Positions 3,391 to 62,478 of a stretch of 64,000 nucleotides of DNA are shown here, one piece after another; within the stretch, counting starts at the first letter, position 1; the number at the start of each line of letters is the position of its first letter. The notes under the pieces were generated by a model. That model saw only the letters and a program-made list of their open reading frames with translations, searched no databases and was not told where the DNA came from. The DNA is taken from the IMG/VR virus record IMGVR_UViG_3300032293_000766, positions 1 through 64,000 of that record; one strand, given 5' to 3'. The DNA comes from a virus. Both the position numbers and the translations under genes were made by a program.

Positions 3391-3564
3391 ATGAATGAAC
3401 CCAAATTAGTTGAATCGCAATTACACTGTCGCGCCAATGCAAGTCTAAACACTTCTATTATTGAAGATTTAGAGAAAGAGGATCGCCCACTAGAATCTTT
3501 ATTACTGGATGAAGGGAAAAAGGATGAATCGTCAACAACTTCCACTAAACAATTGCCTAGCTAA
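3391..3564 (+). CDS. Small acidic hypothetical protein (~57 aa)
   Basis: AAGGAG RBS 7 bp before the ATG at 3391. Confidence 0.55.
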   Translation: MNEPKLVESQLHCRANASLNTSIIEDLEKEDRPLESLLLDEGKKDESSTTSTKQLPS

Positions 3565-28037: not shown

Positions 28038-28039
28038 TT

Positions 28040-28894: not shown

Positions 28895-29205
28895 TGGCAC
28901 ACTACGCATTTCTAAATAATCAAAATATTGTTACAGAGGTTATCATCGGCAAAGACGAGAATGATGGCGGTATAGATTGGGAAGTATATTATGGCGAATT
29001 ACGTAGTCAAGTATGTAAGCGCACAAGTTATAACACGCATAATAACGTTCATCTATTTGGTGGCATTCCGTATCGCAAGAATTATGCTGGCATTGGGTAT
29101 ACATATTTAGCAGATCTAGACGCTTTCATCCCTCCATGTCCCGGCGATGGCTGGACCTTGGACGAAGCTACTGGTTCATGGGTTTTCAATGACCTTCAAC
29201 AATAA
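28894..29205 (+). CDS. Conserved partner of Gly-rich fibre proteins (MAHYA...RKNYAGIGYTY type)
   Basis: MAHYAFL..NIVTEVI, RTSYN, RKNYAGIGYTY, DAFIPP; TAATG coupling. Confidence 0.7.
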   Translation: MAHYAFLNNQNIVTEVIIGKDENDGGIDWEVYYGELRSQVCKRTSYNTHNNVHLFGGIPYRKNYAGIGYTYLADLDAFIPPCPGDGWTLDEATGSWVFNDLQQ

Positions 29206-29242
29206 ACTAACCCCACAGTACATATATTTTTAAAGGTATAAT

Positions 29243-31012: not shown

Positions 31013-31014
31013 TT

Positions 31015-42900: not shown

Positions 42901-45900
42901 TTTACCACCCAAAGCATACCATTTACGCTTGGTGTAAAAAATGATATAGCATCTCTTACAACAAAATCAGACTCTATTGGACCAAATAATTATTTTACTA
43001 TTGGATCATTAGACGCAAATCAAGAATATCTATTTAAGTTAGCCCCAGAAAGCGTAGCTGGCGTTGGGGAATATTCTGACTTGATTAAAGTTAAAACTAG
43101 CCCCGCTTTTATATCAGTATGGAATACATCTAATGTGACTCTAGACACTTCACTTAACGACGAGGTAAGACTACCTCTAGTTGCTAATGGTAATTATAAC
43201 TTCTACGTTTCTTGGGGCGATGGTAAATTCGATCTCATTACTAACGCTAATTATCTTACTAAGTCTCTTCATGAATATTCTACTCCCGGTCAGTATACTA
43301 TTACAATGCAGGGCGTAATAGATGGTTGGCAATTCAAGGAAGATGGAGATTCTATAAAGATACAAGAAGTTAAATCTTGGGGTCCACTTAACTTTATAGA
43401 TAATGTAGATCGTCAATTCCAAGGTTGCAGCAATCTAGTTATAACAGCTAAAGATTATCCAAAGATTGGCAATACTCTTAGTGCATGTTTCTCAGATTGC
43501 ATTAGCCTAAATGACTCTCTAGAAAATTGGGATGTCTCAAGATGTTTGGATATGAACTTCATGTTTTTAAATTGCGTTGCTTACAATGGAGATATTTCTA
43601 AGTGGGATGTTTCTAATGTTAAGAGCATGAGAGCTATGTTCTTAAATGCCGTGTCTTTCAATAGAGACATTGGAAGATGGAATACTGGTAAAGTGTTTAA
43701 CATGAATTCTATGCTTACAAATGCTTCTAGCTTTAATCAAGATATTAGTCTAATGAGAATTGATAGCTTAGTTGATGCAAACAGAATGTTAATAGGCACT
43801 GATATGAGTAAGCAAAACTATGATAACCTTTTAGAATTTTGGGGTGATATAGATACTCCAAAGCGTTCAGACGTAGCTTTTGGAATTAGCCAAGAATATT
43901 CAAAAAATAGTATATCTGATGCAGCTAGACAAACATTGCGTCAACAATATAATTGGATTATTAATGATTATGGTAGCGACAACTCTTTTGTGTTTAAGAT
44001 TAAGAGTGCTACCGATGATTTTACTTTTGATCTTGGCAATTTCTTTAAGACTAACACTAATGATAGTAGTAGATCTTATGGAGCCATGTATGTCAACTTT
44101 GGTGATGACTCATTCTTAGATATTCCTACCGGTTCTAACTCAATAATAAAAAATTATTACGACAAACTATCACAAGAGCTAACAGTGCGCATCGATGGTA
44201 GTATGAGTAATTTTAACACTAAGTATAATGATTCGCGCATATACATAACAGATATAGCTAGGTGGGGTGGTGTTTCTACATTTATCAATAATATACCAGA
44301 TAGATTTTCTGGATGCACAAATCTATTAAGTGTAACCGCTGAAGATTCTCCACAATTAGCTAATTCCATCATGGGATTCTTTAGTGACTGTGAATCGCTT
44401 GGATCAATTGATGATACTGAAAGTACTAGTAATTTTATACTATCTTTTGGTCTGAATATAAATGGTCAATTAGGATATGATACTTCTACTGCATCTAACC
44501 CATTTCCTAGAAAATCAACTAATAAGAGATGGAGAAAAGTTGCTAATGGTAAGAATCATACTCTTGCTATTGACAATCAAGGATACCTATGGTCTTGGGG
44601 AAATAATAGCTCTGGCCAATTAGGACATGGAGATAGAACTTCGCGCATTACACCAGCTAGAATCAGTAATAAAACTTGGAATCATATAGCTGCTGGGCGT
44701 GATCACAGTTTGGCTATAGATAATAATGGTAGGCTTTATGCTTTTGGCAGTAATGCTTATGGACAAATTGGAGATGGCACTAATAATAATAGATTGTCTC
44801 CCGTACTAATAGATCAAATAGATACACAATGGATTTATGTATCTGCCGGTCATGATTTTAGCATGGCTATCTCTGACGATGGAGAATTATATTGCTGGGG
44901 TAATAATGAATACTCACAACTTGGTACTGGTGATATCGTATTAAGAAATGTACCAACTAAGATCGGTATTAAGACTTGGAAGATGATAGACGCTGGCAGA
45001 GATCATGCTTTAGCTATAGATACATCTGACAACTTATACGCTTGGGGAAATAATGCCTACGGTCAATTGGGCCTAGGTAACAATAATACTGCTAATGTTC
45101 CAACATTATTAAGCGGTTCTACTTGGAAGAAGATTAGTGCTGGTGAATTCTACTCTCTAGCAATTAACTCTTTAGACAAGGCGTATGGATGGGGTAATAA
45201 TGCCTATGGTCAACTAGGCAATCAGCAAGGTAAAAACAGCGGCAATAAGATAAACGCCCCAAGTGTCATTAGAAATGATCTTACATTTACAAATATATAT
45301 GCTGGGTATAGACATAGCGCAGCAATTCAAAGTAATAAAGATATGTGGCTATGGGGTGATAATACATACGGTCAGCTAGGATATCAAACATCTCAACTAT
45401 CAAATAGTGAACTACCAGTTAAACTAAATAGTACAAATAATTTTGGTAATATAGCTTTAGGTGAATATCATACATCATCAATTTTAGATGAACCACCCGT
45501 TTCTTCTACTAGTCTAGAAGATTGGAATTTGGTAAATGTTACTGATATCAGCAATATGTTCAGAAATTGCTCATCATTTAATGTAGATATTGATAGCTGG
45601 AATACTTCTAGCGTAGTAAGCATGAGCTACTGTTTCGCTGGAGCCACAGCTTTCAATAGAAGTCTAAATAGCTGGAATACCAGTAGCGTTATAGATATGA
45701 GTAGTATGTTTGCTGGCGCTATATCTTTTGATGAAGATATTGCAGGCTGGGATACTTATAACGTAAGAAATATGAGTAATATGTTTAACGGTGCTTCTAG
45801 TTTTGATAAGAATGTTGGGTTCTGGGACATAAGTAAAGTTAAAGATATGAGCTTTATGTTTACAAATGCAGTTTCACTAAGCACAAGAACATATAGCAAT

Positions 45901-46056
45901 ATTCTAGTTAGATGGTCTACAGCGCAAGTTCAGCGCGGAGTAGTTCTTCACGCTTCGTCTTATTATGATGGGTCTTCTGTATCAGTCATGTCTGCTCGTA
46001 ACTATCTACTATCTAACGATTGGACAATAAATGATCTGGGGGCCATTAATGTATAA
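36967..46056 (+). CDS. Giant mosaic adhesin: FN3, 5 LamG, PKD-like, DUF285/BspA-like repeats, RCC1 propeller
   Basis: 3029 aa; DRIKE..YTTGSG N-terminus; LamG motifs; WDVSNVKSMRAMF repeats; ~7 (W/F)GxNxxGQLG...AG.xHSLAI repeats. Confidence 0.88.
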   Translation: MSDKIVLYDRIKELSYTTGSGNIILEGSPAGFSSFASVYPHSGVLFYAITDGNNYEIGSGIFLRSDFSASDNILSNQIQRFPIRTSTNSIINWSTGLKEVYVTYPASHSVYTGSGIGSYNNPQVSGLAIWGGSHTLDYDPNLVWNSTLNRLGINKSNPSFAIDIGGQSYESIINASGYIVGNSGIKFASGTQSEHFLKNKLDIDAYNESLLSQTTGLSDVVQLSGAVNQYLLLKKQNAGLFFAGPPSGCGAPPCNPNYPSFRTITMSDLPPLSNTYASYSSGVNHAGRITFWVNNNTIGSDQYFQWDSINHKLSIGKPGIAPVADVEISGVVDILGRLNISSGIRLIPSNNIGSGNSILYQNANNQLVFNNEPYVSSGKVELMVSNAVSSFLLNDLNLNIALSGKSFIPTGTIQYSEVSGVNGQLLLDNQYLYAYTPSGQWRRIYLGNAFDIRSFGDNSFVPPDAPINLSGVPKNQSVHLIWTAPNSSLGIIDYIVQYSGVANSGWLTYGGENSEPRQNVNGLVNGQTYSFRVAAVSAVGSGAYSNTFQSVPNPTVPFAPLITSIANNNIDSITVNWTTPDNGGANISSYELEYTPLSGLAQYLNVGSVNTYTLNSTNGIQGEVAESPNGGAFYTVRVRATNSVGSSNYSTPASLLVRSIGPPSPPRSVQLESVTFDSATLSFILPEFAGHPGEPVSSLDYRALVRFDNFDNTAFAVSGSFSANNGYFYPVYLNSGIAALSGVPMAITMQTFKNITFYGVSSITQSGVASYPTNQYDLYNRYDQVVPDSPSADLRRSVTISNLNRDKLYNITLQSFNNNYNSASSNIVNANTTNPPLKPTNFIGFAESNSGIILSWTNPTQPLPVIDHSIKIGTPSVYCLDFENLRDFDRGTTEDLRVYNSANLGSLTVNKLGSVNYSSDSAVGTKSILLQGLSSARGLYAESSKDLEFGLNDFTVECFVKLDDVNKESILFDFRKNGLNPDAEDLEGEYFLLRVKPNGRLEYRDSEAQRSGFVTNTVLTSGTWHHVAFSRFNNISKIFVDNIAVSSGYVDNLKYLSSPFAFGYDTSLSNPSKNFIGKVDGIRVTNGVGLYVGNFTKPNYNFVDTQFKLNLTNYQAINLNFEQSSGNNNSIVQIPNVRNRLILQMDGDNNTFIDNSTNPNSIISVGNVTQSTNQISPVGGKSAYFDGNSYLDCNSSIGTLVGSENFTIEAWFYLTSPASGIQAIVGSKSSFPFLGELSHIVGIYNNKPYAFVSVGLGTFPVFNPNVQDISLNQWHRINFNRSGNTYYLNFDNVVIAEQTIGGLNTTGSGSLHIGAYDGLNKFSGYIDGVRILADDAYINIPQDNSTPTSQIAIPLVGNAQLVPFPKNGNNSLFIPGNGNNGFLQQFSNNELAFGVKDFTIESWVYPLALDNEYFLFDFRPTNKNSDPGGTYFLLTLNQNRGLNYYTDGKARISTSGNLSLGNWNKVEVSRNQGVTRVFVNGTIAGSLENDRFNFLNQNCRIGYTSWNNRPDYVNQNFIGYIDDFRVLKGVGLYTTNHSVSQSYKNILYAPSDYSSVILNFEEVTDDSLSIENSGNLVSQSTAVKKFGNHSLFFPSSGNNVVSSDISSNLHFGKKDFTIESWIYPTAISGTTPLFDFRPSNVNSLSINDAGVVDGTYLYLTLNSDRSISYITDGSTRIQSSGSAIPSGSWSHVALSRKNGISRLFINGVQHSGVYVDDNNFQPQSFRFGNTAWTSGSFNTYKGYADLINVSKVGQYTQNFTPPNNTFVEITNNNSYPAILLDYNSLIVDKTKQSPITVRAGTSTGNIIKFGSSSLYMGVSPSSPLGIETDESYLFAFSKNDFTVETWIYPTDLSNDQSIFDFRPSVGGGEINSTDNGTYFHLDISSNRSLRYKAGDSTLSNVPTGVISENTWQHIAVSRSNNITRLFVNGTQVGSDIVDNNNFLFSRFRIGPSVNASKNFKGYLDETRVLNGTGAYVNTFTTQSIPFTLGVKNDIASLTTKSDSIGPNNYFTIGSLDANQEYLFKLAPESVAGVGEYSDLIKVKTSPAFISVWNTSNVTLDTSLNDEVRLPLVANGNYNFYVSWGDGKFDLITNANYLTKSLHEYSTPGQYTITMQGVIDGWQFKEDGDSIKIQEVKSWGPLNFIDNVDRQFQGCSNLVITAKDYPKIGNTLSACFSDCISLNDSLENWDVSRCLDMNFMFLNCVAYNGDISKWDVSNVKSMRAMFLNAVSFNRDIGRWNTGKVFNMNSMLTNASSFNQDISLMRIDSLVDANRMLIGTDMSKQNYDNLLEFWGDIDTPKRSDVAFGISQEYSKNSISDAARQTLRQQYNWIINDYGSDNSFVFKIKSATDDFTFDLGNFFKTNTNDSSRSYGAMYVNFGDDSFLDIPTGSNSIIKNYYDKLSQELTVRIDGSMSNFNTKYNDSRIYITDIARWGGVSTFINNIPDRFSGCTNLLSVTAEDSPQLANSIMGFFSDCESLGSIDDTESTSNFILSFGLNINGQLGYDTSTASNPFPRKSTNKRWRKVANGKNHTLAIDNQGYLWSWGNNSSGQLGHGDRTSRITPARISNKTWNHIAAGRDHSLAIDNNGRLYAFGSNAYGQIGDGTNNNRLSPVLIDQIDTQWIYVSAGHDFSMAISDDGELYCWGNNEYSQLGTGDIVLRNVPTKIGIKTWKMIDAGRDHALAIDTSDNLYAWGNNAYGQLGLGNNNTANVPTLLSGSTWKKISAGEFYSLAINSLDKAYGWGNNAYGQLGNQQGKNSGNKINAPSVIRNDLTFTNIYAGYRHSAAIQSNKDMWLWGDNTYGQLGYQTSQLSNSELPVKLNSTNNFGNIALGEYHTSSILDEPPVSSTSLEDWNLVNVTDISNMFRNCSSFNVDIDSWNTSSVVSMSYCFAGATAFNRSLNSWNTSSVIDMSSMFAGAISFDEDIAGWDTYNVRNMSNMFNGASSFDKNVGFWDISKVKDMSFMFTNAVSLSTRTYSNILVRWSTAQVQRGVVLHASSYYDGSSVSVMSARNYLLSNDWTINDLGAINV

Positions 46057-49905: not shown

Positions 49906-50946
49906 ATGGACTTTCAAAAGCGAGAGCTTTTTGTATTAAAAATTAGATTAGGTAAAATTAAAATACCAAAATTAAAATGTGAATTATATCCACCCACCAT
50001 TGAGGATAGGTTAGAGTCATGCGAAGTATATGATCAAGCGTACTTCAATGCTCTCAATGAAGAGATGATGACTGAACATCAAATGGCCGAGTGGATGATA
50101 GAACATAACTTATGGAGTCATCACGAAGAAAAAGACTTAGAAGGTATAAGAAAAAACATAGAAGATATTAAAGTAGAAGTATACAAGCTCAATAAAGAAA
50201 AAAATAAAGCCAATCAACTAAAGAGATATCTTAGGTCTATTGAAAAAAAGCTTAATGACCAAATAAACAAAAAAAACTTGTATTACTATAATACATGTGA
50301 AAGTATAGCCAATCTAGAGAAACTAAGATATTTAATTAAGCGTAATTGCTTACAAAATAATAGGATATGTGACTTAGAAGATGACGAATTAGACTATGTT
50401 CTAGATTGTTTCCGTGAGAGTATTTTATCGGAAGAAATAATAAGAGAAGTTTCGCGCAACGAGCCGTGGCGTTCTTTGTGGTTCATTAAAAATCACAATA
50501 AACAAGACGTATTTTTGAATCTAGATAGAGATATTACTATAAATCAACAAAATTTATTATTGTGGTCACAAACATATGATAATATCCATGAATCAATGGA
50601 CTGCCCAAGCGACGATGTTATAGATGATGATGATATGTTGGATGGATGGTTAATATTTCAGTCACGTAAAAGAAAACAGGAAAAGGTAGAGCAGGATATG
50701 GACAAAAAGATGAGTAGTAAAGTTAAAAATTCTTCTGAAGTATATTTAATGGCATCTAATATTGATGAAGCTAAAGATATAGAAAATATTAATTCATATC
50801 ACTCTAAGATGATTAAGAAGCAAAGGCAAGCAGTCATAAAGCACAGCGGTGACGCTGGCGTTACTCAGGATAAATTTCAAGACGAAATATTAGACCAGCA
50901 AGCTAAACAAAATCAACAATTTTTACAGAACGCTAGGAGGAAATAA
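49906..50946 (+). CDS. Hypothetical protein, possible tail assembly chaperone
   Basis: 346 aa; YDNIHESMDCPSDDVIDDDDMLDGW; between tube and tape measure. Confidence 0.5.
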   Translation: MDFQKRELFVLKIRLGKIKIPKLKCELYPPTIEDRLESCEVYDQAYFNALNEEMMTEHQMAEWMIEHNLWSHHEEKDLEGIRKNIEDIKVEVYKLNKEKNKANQLKRYLRSIEKKLNDQINKKNLYYYNTCESIANLEKLRYLIKRNCLQNNRICDLEDDELDYVLDCFRESILSEEIIREVSRNEPWRSLWFIKNHNKQDVFLNLDRDITINQQNLLLWSQTYDNIHESMDCPSDDVIDDDDMLDGWLIFQSRKRKQEKVEQDMDKKMSSKVKNSSEVYLMASNIDEAKDIENINSYHSKMIKKQRQAVIKHSGDAGVTQDKFQDEILDQQAKQNQQFLQNARRK

Positions 50947-51272
50947 TGTCTCAGGATTATAAAAATATTAGAGATAAAAAATATCAAATTGATTCTAAAG
51001 ATAGGCTATCTAAGATATTGAAAAAGAAAGTTCAAACTACAATGATCGGCGCGTTGAGTACTATGGAAAAATATTTTGGGTTTTTATGGAATAGTGATAC
51101 AGGTAAGTTAACGGAAGATCAGAAGAAAATGCTTGAATTATATCAAGCAATGCGCTCGGAGATATTAGACAAGGGGAATCATCAAGCCAGAAATATTGAT
51201 GCTGAATTGTCTCAGTATAATGTGGAATGGCTAAGATATAATATAACAATGCCAGTTATAAACAAGGAGTAA
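50946..51272 (+). CDS. Hypothetical protein (108 aa)
   Basis: TAATG coupling. Confidence 0.6.
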   Translation: MSQDYKNIRDKKYQIDSKDRLSKILKKKVQTTMIGALSTMEKYFGFLWNSDTGKLTEDQKKMLELYQAMRSEILDKGNHQARNIDAELSQYNVEWLRYNITMPVINKE

Positions 51273-51275
51273 AAA

Positions 51276-52139
51276 ATGAAAGAAAAGCAGAGACAAGTTG
51301 AAGTTAAATTGGAAGATGGAACAGTTAAGAAGGTTTTAGTCAAGAAACCTAGTAATAAGTTACTATCAGACGCCCAATTGCTTGGTGCCAAAGTGTGGAC
51401 AAATTGTACACGCGATGGAATTATGACAAAGAAAGAATTAGAAGTTTTTATGCGCAATAGAAACATTTGGGATTCTGAGAAAGATCAACAGCAACAGGCT
51501 TTAGTTGATTCTATATCTAACTTAGAAAGAGAACTTGCGCTAGGTACAGATGGTAAGTTAACTAAAAAGCGCGGTAAAGAAATTGCAATTTCTATGCGTA
51601 GACTTAGATTAATGTTACGTAATCTTATATCTGAAAGATTAAGTCTTGAGCAGAATACTGCCGAAGCTTTATCTGAAAATGCTAAGTTTGATTTTCTAGT
51701 TGCTAACTGCGTTTATCTTGAAGATGGCAATACAAAAGTGTATAATTCTCTAGAAGATTATAGCGCTAAAGCAGACGATGAAGTAGCCTATGCTTCTGCT
51801 AACGCTTTGGCTCAGATGATGTACTCTATAGACAAAGAGTTCGAAGAAAAACTTCCAGAGAACAAATTTCTTAAAAAGTTTAACTTTGTTAATAGTGATT
51901 TAAGCTTAGTAGATGCAGAGAATAACCTCGTAGATATAGACGGTAAAAGAATAGACAGCGAAGGTTATTATCTCAATGAAGATGGCAATAGAGTAGATTT
52001 AGAAGGTCATGTATTAGATTCTGATGGAGCTTTAGCTTTACAAGCAGAATATGTAGATGATGAATCTGAAGAAGTTTCTACTGAAGTAAAAGAGAAAGTA
52101 AAGAAAAAGGCGTCAAAGAAAAAAGAAGCGGACAGTTAA
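51276..52139 (+). CDS. Putative tail assembly chaperone
   Basis: 287 aa; AAGGAG RBS; immediately upstream of the tape measure gene. Confidence 0.55.
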   Translation: MKEKQRQVEVKLEDGTVKKVLVKKPSNKLLSDAQLLGAKVWTNCTRDGIMTKKELEVFMRNRNIWDSEKDQQQQALVDSISNLERELALGTDGKLTKKRGKEIAISMRRLRLMLRNLISERLSLEQNTAEALSENAKFDFLVANCVYLEDGNTKVYNSLEDYSAKADDEVAYASANALAQMMYSIDKEFEEKLPENKFLKKFNFVNSDLSLVDAENNLVDIDGKRIDSEGYYLNEDGNRVDLEGHVLDSDGALALQAEYVDDESEEVSTEVKEKVKKKASKKKEADS

Positions 52140-52170: not shown

Positions 52171-55100
52171 ATGTCCAGATTTGTTTTGACTGCTCAGTTA
52201 CAACTACAAGCACCAAGTAATGTTCGTCAAGTAGTAAATCAGATTCAAAGCCAATTAGCTGGCGTTAATGTTCCTATTAACATTCAGAACTCTGCTGTTG
52301 CTACTAGACAAATTAATCAAATAAAAGCTGCTACTAACGATGCCACTACTGCGGCAGAACGTATGGGTGCAGCTTTTGGTGTTTCGTTAAAAAGATTCGC
52401 TTCATTTTCTATAGCCACAAGGGCGGTAGGATTATTTACTAGCGGTCTAGCTGGAGCTATTAAAGACGCTATAGCTTTTGAAAGAGAATTAATTAAAGTT
52501 GCCCAAGTAAGTAATCAAAGTATAGCTTCATTAAAAGGTTTAACTTCTACTATAACTGAACTTGCTACGAGTTTAGGTGTAGAGTCTAAATCTTTGCTTG
52601 AAGTATCTACAATCTTAAAGCAGGCCGGTTTATCAGCTAATGATACCTCTATTGCTTTAAGAACACTAGCCAAAGCAGCATTAGCACCTAACTTTGATAG
52701 TATTACAGAAACTACTGAAGGTGCTATTGCTATTTTGGCACAGTTCGGATTGGGCGTAACGGCACTAGAAGGCCAACTATCTTCTATCGATGCCGTTGCT
52801 GGCGCATTTGCTGTTGAAGCTTCTGACTTAATTGACGTTATTAGAAGAACTGGTGGCGTGTTTAAATCATCTGGTGGAGATTTAAATGAGCTTATTGCCT
52901 TATTCACCAGCGTTAGAGCAACGACGCGCGAAAGTGCCGAAAGTATTGGTACTGGATTAAGAACAATTTTTACACGTATACAAAGACCAAAAACTATTGA
53001 GTTCTTAAAACAATTTGGTGTTGAGTTAGTTGATCTAGAGGGTAAGTTCGTTGGCCCATTTGAAGCAGTCAAGAGATTAAGTGCTGCATTAAATGGATTA
53101 GGAGAAGGAGATTTAACTTTTATACGTGTTGCTGAAGAATTGGGTGGCTTTAGACAGATCGGCAAAGTTCTCCCACTTTTACAGCAGTTTGCTATTGCCC
53201 AAAACGCTTTGAATGTAGCACAAAATGCTGGTAATGGATTGACACAAAATGCAGTAACCGCCCAACAGGCTTTAGCTATTCGCATTACTAAAGTAAAAGA
53301 AGAATTTCTTGCTTTCGTAAGAGGTGTTACAGAAAGTAAAGGTTTTCAATTATTTGTTAATACTGCACTAAATTTAGCCTCTGCTTTCATTAAGATAGGT
53401 GAAGCTTTAACACCAGTTATTCCACTTCTTACGGCGATGATGGCTATTAATATTAGTCGTGGCATAGGTAGTTTTTTAACTTCTATACCGCGCGGAGTCG
53501 CTTCTAATAGACTTAGTGGTGGTGGTAGAGTCTTAGGTTTTGAAAAGGGTGGAATGGTTCCCGGTGTTGGCAATAAAGATAGCGTACCGGCCATGTTGAC
53601 TCCCGGTGAAATTGTCATGAATCGTGCAGCTGTACAGAAATATGGTGCTGGTAATTTAGTAAAAATGAATCGCTCTGCTAGTGGTGGATATACTGTTGAA
53701 CAACTGAAAGATTCACAGAAAAAAATAATATCTAGAAGTCTTTATCCCACCTCTCCTACATCTCATTTAGAATTAAACGATAAAGTTAAAGCTAATATCG
53801 TACAAATGCCAGCTAACGAGCCACTGTCACCCGAAGAAATTGACAGTATAAGAAAAGCTTATCCAAGTTTAACTCCTGATCAAATGAAAAGAATTAAGGA
53901 TGGGAATCAGCGCAAATCTTTGATAGATATTCGCAAAAATCCACAAAGCGCTTCAAAAGAAGATATTACTTTATCTAAAGAATTTGCTAGAGCAGAACGA
54001 GTCTGGGGGCAGGCTTATGAGCAAGTATTAATAAATAGAAGCAAGGGCAAGGATAGTCAAGGTGAATTAAGCTTGGCAAACTCCGGTGATTTAAATTACC
54101 CAGTAGATGTAAAAAGAGGTAATGCTGGTTCTGAAACTTGGGGAGAAGTCAAGTTTAAAACTAGCAAAGAGCCTAAAAAAGACTTAACTGCTAAACTTCT
54201 TGCAAAAAAAATATTAGATAATCAGATAAATACATTATTTACTGAGAATAAACCAGATCCAAAAATTGACGATGTTGATTTAGGAATATTAGAATATTAT
54301 TCTGGCATATCTAAAGGAGATAGTCATAAATTACAGTTTTATAAAGGTCTAAGTTTAGGTGGTAGGGTTCAAAGATTTGAAGAAGGTGGCGTTGCTCAAC
54401 GCAGAGTTGGTATTATAGATAGTGACGTTCTTAGAGACAAGAAAAATGCAGCAAGAGTAGCTGAAGGCATGAAGCTATTAGATGCTAAATCTGAAGCTGA
54501 CTATGCTATTAAGCTGTCTAAACTAGCTGGCGAAGCAAGGCAGGCTGGCTCATTAAATAAATTTAGAGTTATGACTGGCGCTGCTGCAAATCGTAAAAGC
54601 AGTGTTGCTACTGGTCGCGGAGCTAAAGATGATGCCACATTAAGGAAAACAACTAGAAAACAAATTTTACATCCAGATGATTTAAAAGATGTTGATCAAG
54701 TCATGTCATTAACAACTACCCTAAAAGATTCTAAGTTAGACTATATGGGTATGGCTGATAGAATCTACGTCAAAGATTCTTCTACTGAAGATGAACAAAA
54801 ACTAGTTAAGTTATTTGAAAGACAACGCAATCTTCAAAAAGATCCTACTTTATACGGTAGGGAAACAGGAACTACTGAAGGTTTAAACCCAGACTATGGC
54901 TTACAAACAGCGTCACTAATATCACAATTTGGAACGACAGAAGATCGTACAAATAAAGGTAAGGTGATGACTCTTGGAGAAAAAACTGATCAATCTGGCG
55001 CTCCACGTTTTCAAGTAAGAAGAAAGCGTTTAGAAGAATTGCCAGAATTAGTTAGTGCTAAAGGTCAATTCCCCGGCGCAGCTTCCCCACTTACTAGAGG

Positions 55101-58100
55101 TCACGCTGAAACTGCTGTAGGCACACTACTTGCTAAAGTTAGGGAAAAATATCCAGACGCTACTCATAAAGATTTATTATTTGCTTTAGCTCCAGATTTA
55201 TCTTTGAGTGGTGGATCGCAAGGTAGGGAACATGGTTCAAGATATGGAGAATATCCAGCGTCATTTAGAAGAGATTTAATTAAGCTGGCTTTACCAGAGA
55301 TGATGATTTCCTCTGCCAATAGCGCATCTCAAACTGGTATTAATTCAAGAATTTCTGAAATTGAGAAGGGCGCTACTGGTCGAAGAAGATTTGCGGTAAT
55401 GGAAAAAGACGCCCCAGTTGTTATATCTAAAGCAGAAAATGAAAATCCAGAAGGCGTAATGGAAAGATATAGATCTGCTGGATTAACTCCATATAATATA
55501 GCTAGATCAGCTGATACTGAGGGGGATAGTATTAGCGGTACAGCCACAAGGCAAGCTGTAATTGATAAAGATTATGCCAAGTTAGATTTAGCCGTATTGC
55601 CACAAGTTGGTTCTGCTATTAAAGCTAATCAACCACAATTGCGCAATCGCAGGATGATGGTTCCACTAGTACAACAAGCTTTAGATATTTTTACACAGGC
55701 AAATGCTAGTAAGGTAAACGAACAGGTAGACAGTATATTGCAAAACGCTTCTGGTGGCCCGTTTACAAGGATGACTCCTAAATTTAAGGAGTCTCATCCC
55801 AATCTAGTTAAACAGATTAAACAGCTTAGAAGTAGTAGGGATATATTTGAAAGAGAAGCTTTCCTAGATCCGGCTCATGACTTAATTAGAATAATTAGTG
55901 ATAGATATCCAGATATGTATGGCTTAGATGTATCAAGAAAAGAGCCAGTAGATGTGCCTGTTACTGAAGATATGATTAAACAACATATTGTTGATGCTAG
56001 CAAGTCATCTTCTTATTTTAGACCCGGTTTATCTTTCAATGGTGATGGAATACAATTATCGCCAACATTACAAAAAGTTAAGGACGCTGTTGATAAAGAA
56101 GTAAAATCTGAAGTTGTTGCTGAACCGACAGTAGAGAAAGAAATAGTAGCCCCAAATAGTAGAAGTGACATATTTAAGATTTTATCTAGAGAAGAGGCCG
56201 CAGCTGCTTCTGGCGTGAGTGGAATTAAAGCCTATGATATTATGGGTATACGTAGACCGCTAACCCCAGACGAACAAAAGGTTAAGGATGCTATTAAGGC
56301 TGCATATGTTAAAAAGGTCAAGCGTCAAGGGGCATCAGCTAAAGCCCAGACAACTAAATTAAGAGAAAAGGGATTAGAATTTGGCGCTGCTGGATTATTT
56401 GGAAAAGCTTTTGCAGCTAAAAATATTAAAATTGAATCTGATAAATTGTCTAGCTCAAGAATGGTTAGAGTTAATAGTGGCGTAATGGATCAGGCTACAG
56501 CCACAAGACTTAGTACAACAATGAGCCAAGGCGTTAGTGACATTATTAGTAAAGGTACTAATATAGTTAGGGCTGGACAGTCAAAATCGCCTCCAACGCA
56601 AAATCCACTTCAAGGATTAAATACTAATACTAATGCCACTATTCAGGGTGGATTAATAGAGCAAATAATTCAACAGCTAGGTGGCCCCGGTGCCGTTAAG
56701 GGTAAAGGATTTGACTTTCCAGAAGGATTGCAGGGTGCTGCTAAGTATTTTAATATAGATCCAAGCATTCCAACAGACGTTAAGAGAACTCTATCTGGCC
56801 CCTCTACCATTAAAGATAATATAGTTACTTATCTTAAAAATGTAATGGGTTATAATAGTGGTGGATTAGTACAGAAATTTCCTATAGGTGGCAGAGTATC
56901 TAGAAAAGTACCTTATGACGAGGTTGAGGGCGATCCATTTGCTAAAGCAGCTAATAGTAACACGCTTGGATCTTCAGCTTATGATTTAGAAAAAAGTAGC
57001 GGTTTAAGTCCTACCGAGTTTGAACAAGCTTACCAATACGCTAAGACCGCTCAGTTTAACATTGAAGAATTCAAAAAAGATTTAGCTAGAAGATTAGAAG
57101 CTAAAAAACAAAGATCTCAAATCAAAACTGATTCGTCTAGTATGTTGCAACAATTAATGCAACAAACTAAGACATCTACAGATAAACAAATAGCATTAGG
57201 AAAAACATTACAGGATACTTCTAATGATATAGGGTATAGGCCATCCGAATTAGAAAGAATAGCTCAAGCAAGAGCAGATATTAGTAATGCCATTCAACCT
57301 ACAAGAAGGAGAATGGGTGGTCGCCTTGGTTTTGAAACTGGCGGTACTGTTCCAGCTTTAGTTAGTAATGGTGAAGCTTATGTTCCACCAGCTATGGCTA
57401 AAAAGATAGGTTACGGAAAACTCAATAGGATGAATCAGGCAGACCGTAATGGTATGGGGCGATTTAGCGAAGGTGGCATTAGCGTATTCAAGGGGCCGGG
57501 AAGTGGTACTAGTGATAGTATTCCCACTAATTTACCAGTTGGTAGTTTTATAATACGAGAGAAGGCTACTAAAGCATTAGGATTGAATAGAGGGGGAAGT
57601 GTTGGTGGCGTTAGAAGATTTTTTAAAGGTGGTCAAAATACAAAAGATGCTAGCAGAACAAAGGGTTATACTTCTTATGCAAATATAGAAGATGCTGCAA
57701 ATGATTTTGCGGATATAATTGGTCAATTAGGTCCAAGAATCGCTCAAGATATTCAAAAAAGATTTCAAGGCATTGAAAATGTACAGGCTGGACAAACACC
57801 GAAGCTATCTAAAAAACCTATGAAAGAAGGAATGCGCGGTGCAGCTGTCATTAATTCTCAAGGGCAGACATCAATGGCTTTACAAATACAAGGAGCGAAT
57901 GCTGCTGCTAACAGTAACACACTTGCTCATGAAACTGGTCACTTAGCAGACTTCTCACTCGGTGGAGGTAAAGAACTAGCAAGTAAAACAGAAGGTACTT
58001 TTCAATTTGACTTGGTTGAAAAAGTTAAGCCTATTATGATAAAAGCTTTTGAAGCAGCGGGTGAATCAGCACAAAGAATTGCAGAATATTGCGCTTCAAA

Positions 58101-61100
58101 TGAAGAGTTATTTGCAGAATTTTTTGCTAAAGCTAGTCCAGAAGTTAGGGCTATTATAACATCAACAACGGATTCCAAAAAAGGAATGGAGCAATTAGCT
58201 AATATCTTAGGGAAAACTGGATACACATACGCAGGATTAGAAGCTTCTGATATATCAAAGCCGCGACCTCAAACAAAAGCGGCATCTATGGGTATGTCTA
58301 CTGCTGACGTAATAAATCAAGCAAAAGTTCTGTCTATTCCTTCTTCTTTCAATATAGGTGGGTTAACTGGGCCAACCAGTGTACCAACTGGGTCAACCAG
58401 TGTGCCATCAGCTGGACCGTTACCAGAAGAAGATTGTGTTAAGTTATGTGATCCAGTACTAGATAAATTAAATAGTACTCTTAGTGAGTTACTAAAGGCT
58501 ATACAAGCTTTATCTTCATCTAGCACTCCATTTACGCCTAGCGCATCAGTATCGCCACAACAATCGCAGCCACCAGACCCACAAATGAGTAAAGCAGAAG
58601 CTACAACATTAGCGAGTACACCTAAAAGTGATATGTTTAAAAAGTCTACAGAAGAGTTAAGTACAGCACAAAAGGTCTTACAAGCAGACTTTGCCGCACA
58701 AAGAGACGCTCTTAGAGCAACTGCTACTAGTGCGTCAGAATACAAAAAGAAATTAGAAGAAATTGATAAAGAAGAAAAAAATAGATTAAAAAATATCAAT
58801 AAAGAATTAAAGACTAGAGAAGAAGCCCCAGCTAAAACTGCTGAACGTAAAGCCGAACGTAAAGCTGAACGTGAAGCTGATAACAATTTAAGTAAGGTTA
58901 CAGGAGCAATTAGTAGCGGTCAAGGCTATCAATTAAAAAATGAAGAACTTGTTTCAGCAAATAAAACAGTACAAGATCGTGCTAGTAAAGCTAGAGATGA
59001 AGCTAGACAAACTTCAACTAGTCAAAAAGATTATGATCAACGTGTCAAGACTATTAATGAAAATGAAGACAGTCAACTTAAAGGAATAAATAGAGAAGCA
59101 AAAAATCGTGGCATTAATTTAAGTGGTGGCGAAAAATCTGACAAGGGCATGTTTACTTTCAGTCAAGCTCTTACTGGCGCTAGTGCTGCTTTAAATGGTT
59201 TAATACAAACTGCTGGCGGTACTGATGATGCCTTTGGTCGTATTGCAAGTTCTGTACTATCTTCAGTTACTGCTATTAGTAGTTCGCTTTCTGTATTAGA
59301 ACAATTATCTGGTATTGAAATAAAAGGTTTTGGAGACATAGCTAAAATACCACAAGAATTAGGTAAATCTTTTGCTAATATTGGAGCTACTTTAGATGCT
59401 AAAATATCAGAATTTTCTGGTGGAAGAATATCTAGTTCTTCTGTTGGACTTGAAAAACTCTTTTCTTCCTTGGGTGCTGTTGCCGGTGTCGTTGGCATAA
59501 CTGCCGCTGCGTTTTCCGCAGCTGCTGGCGTGTTGTATTCTACTAGCACAACAGTTGCTGAATATGACAAGGCAATGGCAGATGGGAATATAGCATTAGT
59601 TGGTACTTTATCAGCTAAAAAAACAGCTGAAGAAGATATTATTAATAGTGGAGGAATATTTGCTGCTGGAATAGTTGCAGTTGCTGCGATAGTACCTATA
59701 TTTTTAGCAGCTGTAACATCAATGATACCTCCATTGGCTGGACTTTCAACTAGTTTATACGCTCTTGCTGCTCCAATAGCTGCTACTGTTGCCGTTGTTG
59801 TTGCTGCTGGTGCAATATTTTTATATGCTACTGGTAATTTGGAAAATTTTGCAAATGGAGTTAGAAATATTGCGTCAAGTTTAACCGGTGGTTGGATACA
59901 GAGTACTTCAACAATTCAACAGTTTGCTCAAGCCACTGCTGCTACTTCTCATACAATGAAATTGATGCAAGATCAAGCTAAACAAACTACACAATCTCTT
60001 AAAGACTTATCAGAAGGTAGAAAGAGCGCAAAAGAAGTATTGAATCAATTTTCTGGACAGGCAAAATCTGCTGCCAATGCTCAATTCTTAGCAGAAGCTT
60101 TACCGGAAGATACAGCTAAAGAGAAAAAAGCCAAAGATAAGGCAATTGATGAAGCTAATAAGAATAAAGATAAAGTTTTGTCAGACGCCGCACCAGCTAT
60201 TAATTCTCAAGCTAGAAATATAGCTATCGCTGGCGGAAATTTCGCTGACTTTTTTGCTAGCTTACCAAAAGAATTACAAGCAATTTATAATCAAAATCCA
60301 GAAGAATTAAAATTACTTAAAGAAGCTTTTGGTAATACTGCTAAAGAAGTTGAAGTTGCTAGAAAACAATTTGAAGCAATGAATCTTGGTTTTAGAAATG
60401 TAACTTCTGTAACTGGCGCTGCTGTAAATTCTGTTACAAATTTTACTGCTGGGTTACAAGCTGGGAATTTGGCTGTTGCTCAATCTGCTAATACATTGGC
60501 AGCTTCTCTTACGTCTGCTGGAGCAAATATTAGTACAAATGATTTTAATAATGCTTTGAGTGATGTTACAGGAACTATGGCCTCTCTTGGCGCTAGTGAT
60601 CAACAAATTTCAAAATTTAAAGAAAATCTTACAGCTTTGGCGCAAGTTCAGAGAAATGCTAGTGGAATTTTTGATCAAGTAAAAGATCAAATTAAAGCTG
60701 GTGGATTCCAAGGTATGAGTCCAGAAGCCGCTGGAGAAAGCTTCCGTAAATTAGTTGATGATCAATTAAAAGCTTCTGGAATTGGTGAAGAAGCTCGTAA
60801 AAGAATTGGTGACGCTTTAGGCGATATTGAACTTGGCGATAAAGAGAGGCAACAAATTGCTGCCGGTGATTACAGTTTCTTAACTAAGAAACTAGAAGAG
60901 GCTGGTGTTGGTATGACCGCAGAGGTAAATCAGATGGTATCTGATTTGCAAAAGGTAAATTCTGAATTAAATACTTTATACAAACAAAGAATTGACTCTG
61001 AACGAGCTTTAGTCGAAGCTCAACGTCAAGCTATTTCATTAACCTTAGAAGGTCTTGATATACAAGCCAAATACGGTGGCAATGCCGTCACTCCAGAAAT

Positions 61101-62478
61101 AAGAAAACAAGCAGCATTAGAAAGCGCAAACGTTGGAAGGAGGGCTGCTGGATTAAATGATATAAGAGGTTCAGACCCTGCATCTTTACGTGCTGGATTA
61201 AATCAAATTCGTGGAAATTTTTCTGGATTAGAGCAAAAAGCTTTGCAGGGCAAAGTTTCTGGCCAAGAGGGCGTAAAAGATGAAGGAATGAGAGAAAATC
61301 TCAAGAAAGCCCAACAGGATCAAATAAAGTTAATTAAAGATTTAATATCCGCAGAAGAAGAACAACTAAGACTTACTAAGGAAAAAAATAAGTTAGAAAA
61401 AAGTTCTTTAGAATCATTATTGTCTGGAGATATTGATAAGTTCTTTGAGCAACAGGCTGCTGTTGGCGCAACCGCAGCTATAGCAAGCGGTAATCGCGCA
61501 GCTATTGGTCAGTTTGGAGGTCAAGCATTATCTGGAGCTTATCAGAATTTACAATCTCAAAAAGAAGCTGGAGTAACTGAAGTATTTGGTCAGAGAATAT
61601 CTGGGGCCGGTGGATTACTAGAAAGTTCTGCTATGGCTTCACTTGGAGCTAGGGGCATACAAAATCCAAGAATGGCGCAAATATTAGCTGGTACTACTCC
61701 AGAGGAAGAGGCTAGTAGTAGAAGACTAAGGGAATATGGTGGATTACTAGGTGAAGCTGGTGCCGCTGGTGCTGAAATGGCACAAATGGAATTAGCGCGT
61801 GCAGACATGAATATTGCTAAAGCTACTATAAAAATAGAAAATGGAGGTTTTGATACAGATATTTTAAGTAATGAACCACAAGGTAGAAGTCGCGGTGGAA
61901 TCGTGTATGCTAGTAAAGGACAGCTTATTAATTTTGTTCCAAAGGGAACAGATACCGTTCCAGCCATGTTAACTCCCGGTGAATTTGTAATAAATAGAGG
62001 CGCTGTAAATCGTGGTGATAACTTATCTTTCTTAAGAGCTATTAATAATGGTAATTATACAGCAAGCGCACAAAGATTAAACAGCAACAATACTTCTATT
62101 CCTAATATTATGAAACAATTAGCTGGTAGTCCACAGGTAATACAAACTCAGGATACTCAAAGGAAAATGGTTCAAAATGAACAAAGTATATCAAATGTTA
62201 ATTTTGACGTACAAAAACTTTCTAAGCAACTCGGCAAATTCATGTCAGGATTTGATGGATTTATGGAAAGTTTCTCAAATCAAGTTGGAAAGCTAGGCAA
62301 TACTGAGGTTTCTCATAAGATGGGAGATGTAAATCTTAATATTAATGGAGGCCAGTTCTTACAAAGCATGGCCGATGGATTAAAGCAACAGTTAATGCAA
62401 GATTTAGGACAACAATTGCAGAGTATAAAAATAAATAACGTTGGTAATATTAAACTAGGAAGAACATCTGTATTATAA
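52171..62478 (+). CDS. Tape measure protein with central enzymatic cargo domains
   Basis: 3435 aa; N-terminal TP901-like TMP core (FERELIKVAQVS..., TTRESAESIGTGLRTIFTRI); TM segments ~59480-59835; DxVPAMLTPGE motifs. Confidence 0.88.
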   Translation: MSRFVLTAQLQLQAPSNVRQVVNQIQSQLAGVNVPINIQNSAVATRQINQIKAATNDATTAAERMGAAFGVSLKRFASFSIATRAVGLFTSGLAGAIKDAIAFERELIKVAQVSNQSIASLKGLTSTITELATSLGVESKSLLEVSTILKQAGLSANDTSIALRTLAKAALAPNFDSITETTEGAIAILAQFGLGVTALEGQLSSIDAVAGAFAVEASDLIDVIRRTGGVFKSSGGDLNELIALFTSVRATTRESAESIGTGLRTIFTRIQRPKTIEFLKQFGVELVDLEGKFVGPFEAVKRLSAALNGLGEGDLTFIRVAEELGGFRQIGKVLPLLQQFAIAQNALNVAQNAGNGLTQNAVTAQQALAIRITKVKEEFLAFVRGVTESKGFQLFVNTALNLASAFIKIGEALTPVIPLLTAMMAINISRGIGSFLTSIPRGVASNRLSGGGRVLGFEKGGMVPGVGNKDSVPAMLTPGEIVMNRAAVQKYGAGNLVKMNRSASGGYTVEQLKDSQKKIISRSLYPTSPTSHLELNDKVKANIVQMPANEPLSPEEIDSIRKAYPSLTPDQMKRIKDGNQRKSLIDIRKNPQSASKEDITLSKEFARAERVWGQAYEQVLINRSKGKDSQGELSLANSGDLNYPVDVKRGNAGSETWGEVKFKTSKEPKKDLTAKLLAKKILDNQINTLFTENKPDPKIDDVDLGILEYYSGISKGDSHKLQFYKGLSLGGRVQRFEEGGVAQRRVGIIDSDVLRDKKNAARVAEGMKLLDAKSEADYAIKLSKLAGEARQAGSLNKFRVMTGAAANRKSSVATGRGAKDDATLRKTTRKQILHPDDLKDVDQVMSLTTTLKDSKLDYMGMADRIYVKDSSTEDEQKLVKLFERQRNLQKDPTLYGRETGTTEGLNPDYGLQTASLISQFGTTEDRTNKGKVMTLGEKTDQSGAPRFQVRRKRLEELPELVSAKGQFPGAASPLTRGHAETAVGTLLAKVREKYPDATHKDLLFALAPDLSLSGGSQGREHGSRYGEYPASFRRDLIKLALPEMMISSANSASQTGINSRISEIEKGATGRRRFAVMEKDAPVVISKAENENPEGVMERYRSAGLTPYNIARSADTEGDSISGTATRQAVIDKDYAKLDLAVLPQVGSAIKANQPQLRNRRMMVPLVQQALDIFTQANASKVNEQVDSILQNASGGPFTRMTPKFKESHPNLVKQIKQLRSSRDIFEREAFLDPAHDLIRIISDRYPDMYGLDVSRKEPVDVPVTEDMIKQHIVDASKSSSYFRPGLSFNGDGIQLSPTLQKVKDAVDKEVKSEVVAEPTVEKEIVAPNSRSDIFKILSREEAAAASGVSGIKAYDIMGIRRPLTPDEQKVKDAIKAAYVKKVKRQGASAKAQTTKLREKGLEFGAAGLFGKAFAAKNIKIESDKLSSSRMVRVNSGVMDQATATRLSTTMSQGVSDIISKGTNIVRAGQSKSPPTQNPLQGLNTNTNATIQGGLIEQIIQQLGGPGAVKGKGFDFPEGLQGAAKYFNIDPSIPTDVKRTLSGPSTIKDNIVTYLKNVMGYNSGGLVQKFPIGGRVSRKVPYDEVEGDPFAKAANSNTLGSSAYDLEKSSGLSPTEFEQAYQYAKTAQFNIEEFKKDLARRLEAKKQRSQIKTDSSSMLQQLMQQTKTSTDKQIALGKTLQDTSNDIGYRPSELERIAQARADISNAIQPTRRRMGGRLGFETGGTVPALVSNGEAYVPPAMAKKIGYGKLNRMNQADRNGMGRFSEGGISVFKGPGSGTSDSIPTNLPVGSFIIREKATKALGLNRGGSVGGVRRFFKGGQNTKDASRTKGYTSYANIEDAANDFADIIGQLGPRIAQDIQKRFQGIENVQAGQTPKLSKKPMKEGMRGAAVINSQGQTSMALQIQGANAAANSNTLAHETGHLADFSLGGGKELASKTEGTFQFDLVEKVKPIMIKAFEAAGESAQRIAEYCASNEELFAEFFAKASPEVRAIITSTTDSKKGMEQLANILGKTGYTYAGLEASDISKPRPQTKAASMGMSTADVINQAKVLSIPSSFNIGGLTGPTSVPTGSTSVPSAGPLPEEDCVKLCDPVLDKLNSTLSELLKAIQALSSSSTPFTPSASVSPQQSQPPDPQMSKAEATTLASTPKSDMFKKSTEELSTAQKVLQADFAAQRDALRATATSASEYKKKLEEIDKEEKNRLKNINKELKTREEAPAKTAERKAERKAEREADNNLSKVTGAISSGQGYQLKNEELVSANKTVQDRASKARDEARQTSTSQKDYDQRVKTINENEDSQLKGINREAKNRGINLSGGEKSDKGMFTFSQALTGASAALNGLIQTAGGTDDAFGRIASSVLSSVTAISSSLSVLEQLSGIEIKGFGDIAKIPQELGKSFANIGATLDAKISEFSGGRISSSSVGLEKLFSSLGAVAGVVGITAAAFSAAAGVLYSTSTTVAEYDKAMADGNIALVGTLSAKKTAEEDIINSGGIFAAGIVAVAAIVPIFLAAVTSMIPPLAGLSTSLYALAAPIAATVAVVVAAGAIFLYATGNLENFANGVRNIASSLTGGWIQSTSTIQQFAQATAATSHTMKLMQDQAKQTTQSLKDLSEGRKSAKEVLNQFSGQAKSAANAQFLAEALPEDTAKEKKAKDKAIDEANKNKDKVLSDAAPAINSQARNIAIAGGNFADFFASLPKELQAIYNQNPEELKLLKEAFGNTAKEVEVARKQFEAMNLGFRNVTSVTGAAVNSVTNFTAGLQAGNLAVAQSANTLAASLTSAGANISTNDFNNALSDVTGTMASLGASDQQISKFKENLTALAQVQRNASGIFDQVKDQIKAGGFQGMSPEAAGESFRKLVDDQLKASGIGEEARKRIGDALGDIELGDKERQQIAAGDYSFLTKKLEEAGVGMTAEVNQMVSDLQKVNSELNTLYKQRIDSERALVEAQRQAISLTLEGLDIQAKYGGNAVTPEIRKQAALESANVGRRAAGLNDIRGSDPASLRAGLNQIRGNFSGLEQKALQGKVSGQEGVKDEGMRENLKKAQQDQIKLIKDLISAEEEQLRLTKEKNKLEKSSLESLLSGDIDKFFEQQAAVGATAAIASGNRAAIGQFGGQALSGAYQNLQSQKEAGVTEVFGQRISGAGGLLESSAMASLGARGIQNPRMAQILAGTTPEEEASSRRLREYGGLLGEAGAAGAEMAQMELARADMNIAKATIKIENGGFDTDILSNEPQGRSRGGIVYASKGQLINFVPKGTDTVPAMLTPGEFVINRGAVNRGDNLSFLRAINNGNYTASAQRLNSNNTSIPNIMKQLAGSPQVIQTQDTQRKMVQNEQSISNVNFDVQKLSKQLGKFMSGFDGFMESFSNQVGKLGNTEVSHKMGDVNLNINGGQFLQSMADGLKQQLMQDLGQQLQSIKINNVGNIKLGRTSVL

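Follow-up and report, generated by a model that had tools for sequence, protein, structure and literature searches.

A giant tape measure protein of an uncultured phage as a probable carrier of exchangeable enzyme-like modules

Positions 1 to 64,000 of the IMG/VR virus record IMGVR_UViG_3300032293_000766 (the window, that is, the whole analysed stretch of 64,000 nucleotides (nt), located at the start of a single contig of 135,211 bp) contain the gene for a tape measure protein (TMP) of the tail. It occupies 52171..62478 on the plus strand as a single open reading frame (ORF) of 3435 amino acids (aa) plus stop, and its product is called P0001; all features of P0001 given below lie on the same strand. 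The best explanation of its structure, to which we assign a probability of roughly 0.6, is that this TMP doubles as a "polyvalent" carrier of swappable enzyme modules, which would be delivered as cargo. An earlier note on this DNA had proposed a TMP polyprotein whose enzyme-like modules are delimited by repeated linkers, several of them attached to D(S/T)VPAMLTPGE-like units. An enzyme-like cassette in a genuine TMP, exchanged at the linkers, stands up in the present analysis; these units, ~50 aa long, as delimiters of cargo do not.

Unless another denominator is named, counts refer to a family set of n = 191 proteins, composed of 121 P-proteins (as the proteins with P numbers are called here) and 70 TMP ORFs from viral loci. 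As for the protein collection, 129 metagenome proteins, each 2000-6000 aa long, are similar to parts of the region aa 500-2100 of P0001, and the analyses of these giant relatives use the best 120 of the 129 matches. As for the loci, 468 IMG/VR stretches encode relatives of the N-terminal domain; 80 of them were kept and 10 without a recognisable ORF dropped, which gives 70 TMP ORFs, 16 of them cut by contig ends. The TMPs of the family are between 1791 and 6454 aa long.

Judging by its domains, the gene product is a TP901-type tail TMP; the phage, an uncultured one with a 135-kb genome, has its tail genes in a siphovirus-like order. The N-terminal TMP domain (52171..53490, aa 1-440) is the conserved anchor of the family, found in 181/191 proteins and 86-99% identical to close relatives. 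It matches Pfam PF10145 PhageMin_Tail at aa 127-312 (E 1.4e-22, 81 bits, cut-off 33.2) and TIGR01760 tape_meas_TP901 at aa 89-379 (E 1.1e-28, 100.3 bits, cut-off 28.8), and TMP families of PHROGs are matched by aa 16-440. The distal TMP body (59131..61860, aa 2321-3230), delimited by hydropathy and composition, is rich in alanine (15.8% at aa 2320-3230), 64-96% identical to P0002 and P0004, and contains three transmembrane-like segments according to hydropathy (aa 2430-2456, 2489-2526, and 2525-2558; nt 59458-59844). The C-terminal domain (62065..62475, aa 3299-3435) is present in 135 of the 191 proteins. Pfam searches with the whole protein, two relatives, and six separate modules report PhageMin_Tail only, phmmer of the whole protein against PDB gives nothing, and at the nucleotide level the gene has no match among cultured phages.

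All motifs that the earlier note had listed between and around these parts are found in P0001, and its statement that linker-type motifs are attached to D(S/T)VPAMLTPGE-like units also holds. Four motifs head units of ~50 aa, termed A, B, C, and D, with the core D(S/T)(V/I)PAxLxxGE(F/I)V...L..(M/I)N. Unit A (53518..53685, aa 450-505) consists of the linker GGRVLGFEKGG at aa 451 (nt 53521) and the core DSVPAMLTPGEIVMNR...LVKMN; it matches phrog_35029 (function unknown). Units B and C (57316..57603, aa 1716-1811) are headed by GGRLGFETGG (aa 1716, nt 57316), followed by TVPALVSNGEAYVPP, and by GRFSEGG (nt 57460), followed by DSIPTNLPVGSFII, respectively. Unit D (61894..62064, aa 3242-3298) runs from GGIVYASKG through GTDTVPAMLTPGEFVINR to LRAIN, the longer string RGGIVYASKG being at aa 3241-3250 (nt 61894). 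D(S/T)(V/I)P cores are found at three places (aa 470, 1782, and 3261), and the variant TVPALVSNGE is found at aa 1726. The other three motifs are orphan linkers, which resemble the first strand of a core unit and stand immediately before modules: GGRVQRFEEGG (54358..54390, aa 730-740), GGLVQKFPIGG (56860..56892, aa 1564-1574), and GGVRRFFKGG (57604..57633, aa 1812-1821).

These motifs are far more frequent than expected by chance. The pattern GG.{2,6}F.{1,4}GG occurs 5 times in P0001 versus a shuffle mean of 0.11 and a maximum of 2 (0/2000 shuffles reach 5). The strict form GG.[IVLM]..[FY]..GG occurs 314 times in 121 related proteins (493,403 aa) versus a mean of 0.4 in 20 shuffles. In the AlphaFold2 prediction, units B and C together with their linkers have a predicted local distance difference test (pLDDT) score <50 beside a confident module M4, which is compatible with flexible joints and uninformative on cleavage. 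A homotrimer prediction of the unit (3 copies, 91-row alignment) scores 0.01 and is counted neither for nor against.

As the earlier note had supposed for the linkers, comparison of the relatives' TMPs reveals swaps of cassettes at linkers and units. Thus, 64% of the 936 internal ends of BLASTP high-scoring segment pairs (HSPs) on P0001 fall no more than 15 aa away from a linker or unit, compared with 11% at random (maximum 15% in 1000 trials). Breakpoints cluster at the orphan linkers GGLVQKFPIGG (aa 1560-1579, 43 HSP ends) and GGVRRFFKGG (aa 1820-1839, 68 HSP ends). Counting HSP starts and ends separately around linkers does not reveal the side to which a linker belongs. The median distance from a linker or unit mark to the start of the M2a homologue behind it is 3 aa.

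The exchange is seen most clearly in the identity to four near-identical relatives, P0002, P0003, P0004, and P0006. Identity equals 86-99% over aa 1-480 (the N-terminal domain and the start of unit A), drops to 9-32% over aa 521-720 (M1), returns to 76-99% from the first orphan linker, and reaches 51-99% over aa 721-1560 (M2) as a whole, being at least 76% except in the first two windows of P0006. It is again low over aa 1561-1720 (M3; 24-49% or gap), high over aa 1721-1800 (units B and C; 79-96%), and <35% or gap over aa 1801-2320 (M4 and the spacer after it); from aa 2321 to the end, covering the distal body to the C-terminus, P0002 and P0004 are 64-96% identical to P0001. These steps coincide with the four linkers and with the point where unit A ends. 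In P0004, the place of M1 is taken by a divergent M1 homologue, so some swaps occur between versions of one module type; in P0006 and P0007 modules differ outright or follow another order. Clustering of 938 inter-mark segments yields 248 clusters, including 172 singletons. As judged from these alignments, cassettes are exchanged at the linkers among relatives. At the DNA level, only unit A versus unit D forms a notable repeat among the linkers (58 nt at 81%), and homologous recombination between linkers within the gene is therefore not supported. GC content is uniform across the TMP gene (0.376-0.386), thus nothing points to a recent foreign insert.

An array of this kind could also arise as an artefact, if several genes were fused by misassembly or read in the wrong frame. 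This possibility is practically negligible, since the frame is open over 10,305 nt, the architecture recurs on many independent contigs (468 viral-contig relatives and 129 in the protein collection), and the N- and C-terminal TMP parts share one frame in every complete copy. No support for it was found. In one relative, the locus L073, the TMP changes to another frame at 11866-11893, within an M2c-like module and away from any linker; a true frameshift or a fault of assembly would explain this break, which is uninformative.

Composition of the sequence between the motifs differs from that of the flanks, with 9.3% alanine versus 13.9% and 15.8% and 4.5% proline versus 2.0% and 1.5%. AlphaFold models return confident globular enzyme folds for M2a and M4, in line with the ~1600 aa of globular, enzyme-like sequence that the earlier note had described as unlike its surroundings. 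According to iterated profile searches, M1, M2a, M3, and M4 are present in 35, 36, 39, and 38 of the 191 proteins, respectively, and the unit in 191/191 (575 copies).

M2a (54391..55935, aa 741-1255) combines a P-loop kinase-like domain with a HIGH-type nucleotidyltransferase (TRGH, ISGTATR). Its AlphaFold2 model (13-row alignment) has a pLDDT of 82.3 and a predicted template modelling score (pTM) of 0.76. In the VIA comparison, the C-terminal half is closest to NadM 2qjo (Z 12.6, root-mean-square deviation (rmsd) 6.1 over 182), NMNAT 1f9a (Z 12.4, rmsd 3.1 over 156 of 164 residues), and PPAT 4nah (Z 12.3, rmsd 3.0 over 149), followed by TmcAL (Z 10.4). Foldseek also reports PPAT (E 9e-4, probability 1.0), and the PDB profile search reports 3gmi over the ISGT region (E 1.5e-5). 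The TxGH motif is kept at T975 in 36/37 rows and at G977 and H978 in 37/37, and the SxTxxR motif (S1122, T1124, and R1127) in 37/37. By fold and motifs, the C-terminal half is thus assigned to the HIGH superfamily (NMNAT/NadD/PPAT/TmcAL) with predicted nucleotidyltransferase activity; the NMNAT, PPAT, and TmcAL matches are tied within ~2 Z units, which makes the substrate indistinguishable by fold. The N-terminal half gives middling VIA matches to the zeta toxin 6epg_B (Z 8.0, rmsd 3.7 over 154) and to 4z8q_A (Z 5.9). K809 is kept in 37/37 rows, and the Walker A glycines are replaced in P0001. A single-sequence scan of viral contigs with M2a finds nothing, whereas alignment-based scans did find relatives. 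A search for stand-alone M2a (281-896 aa) returns only one TMP fragment on a 2.7-kb contig, a weak absence given that the search needs shared 5-residue words.

M4 (57634..58290, aa 1822-2040) is a HExxH zinc metallopeptidase-like module with HETGH at aa 1920-1924 and E1979. Its AlphaFold2 model has a pLDDT of 70-96 over the domain, and nearly all of the top 50 VIA matches are zincins, with Pro-Pro endopeptidases foremost (PPEP-2 6fpc, Z 7.5, rmsd 3.4 over 130; PPEP-3 9g0j, Z 6.7). Foldseek matches are weak (E 0.05-0.3), and Pfam, including any model for the polyvalent-protein metallopeptidase, returns no family for M4 at E <= 10. H1920, E1921, H1924, and E1979 are kept in 39/39 homologous modules. 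Fold and motif together identify M4 as a zincin with predicted peptidase activity. A search for stand-alone M4 (120-384 aa) finds nothing, with the same requirement for shared 5-residue words and hence the same weakness as an absence.

As for the remaining modules, M1 (53686..54357, aa 506-729) is PD-(D/E)xK nuclease-like by motif only, with E617, D646, E659, and K661 kept in 32/36, 35/36, 33/36, and 31/36 homologous modules, respectively. M2b and M2c are located at 56128..56859 (aa 1320-1563), and an E...D...xK core makes M2c (aa 1484-1563, nt 56620-56859) nuclease-like, again by motif only. M2c is present in 166/191 proteins, and its E1497, D1515, and K1538 are kept in 171/172, 172/172, and 157/172 cases. 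Both M1 and M2c carry the conserved E ... (P)D ... (D/E)xK motif of PD-(D/E)xK nucleases, which makes them candidate nucleases. M3 (56893..57315, aa 1575-1715) is a small (helical) module found in 39/191 proteins, with no Pfam family below E 0.17 and 24-49% identity to close relatives. Behind M4 lies a coiled-coil-like, low-complexity spacer rich in Ser, Pro, Lys, and Glu (58291..59130, aa 2041-2320), which is nearly specific to P0001 (0-3/120 relatives cover it). The start of this spacer contains a tandem 21-nt repeat at 58365-58406 (AACTGGGCCAACCAGTGTACC, copy 90% identical), encoding TGPTSVP and TGSTSVP.

The 50-aa units follow another distribution than the cargo. They are present in all 191 family members, the shortest one (1791 aa) included, which contradicts the view that they delimit cargo. 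The shortest complete TMPs, L034 (1791 aa) and L026 (1883 aa), retain units of the A, B, and D types, the stretch from A to B measuring only ~160 aa; since such cargo-poor proteins keep them, the units are core TMP parts rather than delimiters brought by cargo. The short orphan linkers alone punctuate the cargo. More generally, relatives with N-termini 52-72% identical to that of P0001 have TMPs of 1791-2850 aa, most of them without M1, M2a, and M4. The module of ~160 aa between units A and B (L034 11483-11920; also P0017, P0019, and P0020) shows a DGD(T/S)F...R...(G)(Y/W)DA(Y/P)E pattern; it looks staphylococcal-nuclease-like by eye and is found in 8/191 proteins by profile. For A7, the commonest module of short relatives, a PDB profile search gives nothing meaningful.

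The unit profile matches the representatives of 29,580 protein clusters at E <= 0.001; stricter cut-offs leave 8271 (1e-10) and 1400 (1e-30). There are up to 11 units per protein, in proteins of up to 7872 aa. Pfam reports no family for the unit, and six unit peptide strings have no match in literature text. In a tblastn search of aa 440-2100 against phages, unit A is the only part that matches cultured phages, and no Thermus phage is among them. Besides hub-cluster proteins of T4-like cyanophages, the matches comprise two TMPs and proteins of some uncultured marine viruses. The cyanophage gene stands after gp26 and the hub assembly catalyst and before the TMP or transglycosylase gene (Synechococcus phage S-SM2 (L145) 2996-5296 and S-SCSM1 (L146) 2231-5083). 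Its products of 766-950 aa are annotated as 'transmembrane protein' or 'endolysin (virion protein)'. In gp16 of mycobacteriophage Douge (PDB 8ZDO chain S), the unit is found at 978-1028 and 1426-1470 (profile E 7.5e-5).

The universality of the units (191/191, independent of cargo) and their occurrence in unrelated phages, in proteins of the tail lumen or the hub, agree with a different explanation, in which the modules, rather than being delivered effectors, are degenerate domains or insertions that the phage tolerates and mainly provide an adjustable spacer for tail length or assembly, and the units and linkers dock tail chaperones or the tube. The varying TMP lengths of the family and the degenerate Walker A of P0001 would also fit. 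However, the catalytic-type residues are nearly invariant (M4 39/39, M2a 36-37/37, M2c E/D 171-172/172, M1 31-35/36), and a mere spacer would not keep such residues across divergent copies. In addition, the nuclease, nucleotidyltransferase, and peptidase types are those of known injected polyvalent proteins. We thus regard the spacer explanation as quite improbable.

A true polyprotein, in which the linkers are protease sites and the zincin or another protease frees the enzymes during assembly or after ejection, would account for a strongly conserved, position-specific linker motif and for the predicted disorder of linkers and units (pLDDT <50), which would make them accessible. The array itself includes a zincin with all four catalytic-type residues kept (39/39), and metallopeptidase autoprocessing is proposed for polyvalent proteins in the text of PMC5512222. 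Cleavage at the linkers may occur, but it is not tied to an embedded zincin, and we regard the polyprotein as rather unlikely. A zincin (M4 or a second HELTH type) is present in only 4/54 complete locus TMPs and in 62/121 P-proteins, while linker counts with and without it are alike (3.0 vs 2.24 in locus TMPs and 3.2 vs 3.2 in P-proteins). The core units also begin with the same motif, including those of cargo-poor TMPs and of the Douge TMP. The embedded zincin does not behave as a cognate protease travelling with the linkers; a protease encoded elsewhere may do so.

Several observations weigh against the TMP as a carrier of swappable enzymes. The closest cultured-phage match of the N-terminal domain is SPbeta YomI at ~24% identity (E 6e-14), and no cultured relative exists for a tail-length check. 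Conservation of the linkers by itself partly draws HSP ends towards them. Module frequencies among the 120 P-proteins are biased, since these proteins had been selected for resembling the cargo itself, and the counts include identical or near-identical loci such as L001 and L002. Walker A reads GAAANRKSS in P0001 versus GxAGSGK[ST] in most relatives. For the folds of M1, M2b/c, and M3, Pfam, the PDB profile search, and the ESM Atlas gave nothing usable. The names used for modules of relatives (SNase-, GNAT-, HAD-, and ART-like, and the second HELTH zincin) come from inspection by eye and profile counts, with no library match. The precomputed PF03496 label of P0085 is not reproduced at E <= 0.01, and Pfam searches of P0085, P0105, and P0006 give glycine-zipper matches only, in P0105.

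The family core consists of the N-terminal TMP domain, unit A, unit B, the Ala-rich body with its transmembrane-like segments, unit D, and the C-terminal domain; from unit A to the Ala-rich body, globular modules form an array that varies. In P0001, this array comprises a PD-(D/E)xK-like nuclease, a kinase-like domain paired with an NMNAT/PPAT-like one, another nuclease-like core, the small module M3, and a zincin. In a carrier of this kind, the linkers would act as flexible joints and recombination-tolerant seams; they mark where relatives have exchanged, added, lost, and reordered cassettes. In lambda-like phages, tails assemble separately from heads, and because tails of phages of this kind would do so as well, the cargo is likely to be loosely folded in the tail lumen. 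The Douge TMP fills the tube lumen as a trimer, according to the description in PMC13033339. With separate tail assembly and a TMP in the lumen, the cargo would have to lie in the tail or protrude from it. At infection, the C-terminus at the tail tip would exit first. The membrane segments are downstream of the cargo, so the latter would follow through the channel, as proposed for gp96 of Thermus phage P23-45. Cargo that exits the tail with the TMP could then act on host nucleic acid, on nucleotide or NAD-type metabolism, or on host proteins; we infer injection from TMP biology, and an anti-defence role is hypothetical.

TMPs are ejected into the cell and often proteolysed, and tail length scales at ~0.15 nm per residue. 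The arithmetic behind the exceptionally long tail in the earlier note is correct, with 3435 aa x 0.15 nm giving ~515 nm, as a calculation only. A rough estimate for three chains packed half-densely in a 4-nm lumen suggests ~16 residues/nm versus 6.7 for a helix, in which case cargo of 1600 aa might lengthen the tail by ~100 nm instead of 240 nm. Between close relatives, the globular cargo varies by hundreds of residues (P0001 and P0003 differ by 186 aa), which implies that either their tails vary accordingly or compact cargo departs from the 0.15 nm per residue of the ruler rule. For comparison, P-SS2, which is not shown to belong to this TMP family, has a TMP of 1886 aa and a tail of ~325 nm, as stated in PMC2784084.

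A more far-reaching version, speculative and rather unlikely as a whole, joins these elements. The GGxVxxFxxGG tag and the units would form a loading and translocation code of the tail lumen, by which tagged enzymes are threaded loosely folded behind the ruler and injected ahead of or with the DNA. These TMPs, with ~29,600 unit-bearing protein clusters, would then be a natural, programmable multi-effector injection platform. The kinase-like and NMNAT-like pair would be a ready-made NadR-like NAD salvage enzyme that arrives at the onset of infection and blunts NAD-depleting defences.

In the window, the TMP gene is placed downstream of the gene for the large terminase subunit (TerL; 8078-10054, plus strand, weak Terminase_6N / TerL_ATPase matches), within the same-strand structural block. 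The 668-aa and 487-aa ORFs after TerL have no family match. Three giant repeat proteins, also on the plus strand, consist of 1880 aa (15900-21542), 1345 aa (23585-27622), and 3029 aa (36967-46056); they contain FN3, laminin-G/concanavalin-like, DUF285, and RCC1-repeat domains and are presumably virion fibres or decoration proteins, judging by these domains. Small unannotated ORFs form a block in the same-strand run with TerL, the giant proteins, and the TMP. A comparison of the ten ORFs neighbouring the TMP with PHROGs gives two weak tail matches only, and the ORFs directly upstream (49906-52139, plus strand; 346, 108, and 287 aa) have no PHROG match. GC content rises to 0.40-0.43 in patches at 1-4000 and 28001-32000 and equals 0.32-0.39 elsewhere in the genome.

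If the cargo is delivered, the TMP would represent a second route, besides head-packaged proteins, by which ready-made enzymes reach the host before gene expression, and the cassette structure would show how such an enzyme arsenal gets reshuffled. The family is large, with 468 viral-contig relatives and the unit in ~29,600 protein clusters, and includes no cultured member. The design of tagged modules could guide engineering of phage-based protein delivery in laboratory strains.

Enzyme domains embedded in TMPs are known from several systems. TMPs of the mycobacteriophage TM4 type have embedded cell-wall hydrolase motifs. SPbeta YomI resembles P0001 in having an enzyme domain embedded in a TMP; domains of the YomI type, however, act on peptidoglycan during entry, whereas the modules of P0001 are many and of cytoplasm type by look (nucleic acids, nucleotides, and proteins). 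A parallel in layout is gp96 of Thermus phage P23-45, described in PMC10770324 as a TMP of 5002 aa whose N-terminal part is the virion RNA polymerase. Like P0001, it is a giant TMP with an enzyme N-terminal to the ruler and membrane part, and its enzyme is proposed there to enter with or at the TMP pore. It has one enzyme, while P0001 has 4-5 unrelated modules that are swapped and punctuated by a motif. The tblastn search revealed no sequence relation between the two, and no RNA polymerase motif was noticed in P0001, although no search aimed at one was made.

Polyvalent proteins, as presented by Iyer et al. 2017 (PMC5512222), are giant polypeptides with variable domain architectures that are thought to be injected with the DNA. 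P0001 resembles them in combining nuclease-like, nucleotide-acting, and zincin peptidase domains in one polypeptide with architectures varying among relatives. Two folds and two motif-defined nuclease-like modules, together with cassette exchange among relatives, agree with the domain architecture of this type. In contrast to P0001, polyvalent proteins are described as cargo associated with the head or DNA, and the main text of PMC5512222 contains neither 'tape measure' nor a repeated linker. The Douge TMP gp16 (PDB 8ZDO; PMC13033339) shares the 50-aa unit, there present twice, and is trimeric and located in the tail lumen; gp16 is modelled only at 1658-1699, outside the units, and its description in that source reports no cargo array. 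Another likeness is Sle1, a contractile injection system (CIS) effector presented in PMC13277306 as a TMP-like scaffold with an exchangeable functional domain inside the tail-like tube. Compared by that description, and unlike the array of P0001, Sle1 is the effector of a bacterial nanomachine with a single functional domain.

Searches of open-access literature text for TMP combined with polyvalent, ADP-ribosyltransferase, anti-defense, or cargo return P23-45 and CIS effectors and no description of this family. Thus, enzyme domains in TMPs (hydrolases, the P23-45 polymerase, and CIS effectors) and polyvalent injected proteins are known already, while the array of cytoplasm-type enzymes inside a TMP, its cassette exchange, and the widespread unnamed unit and linker are new within the scope of these searches.

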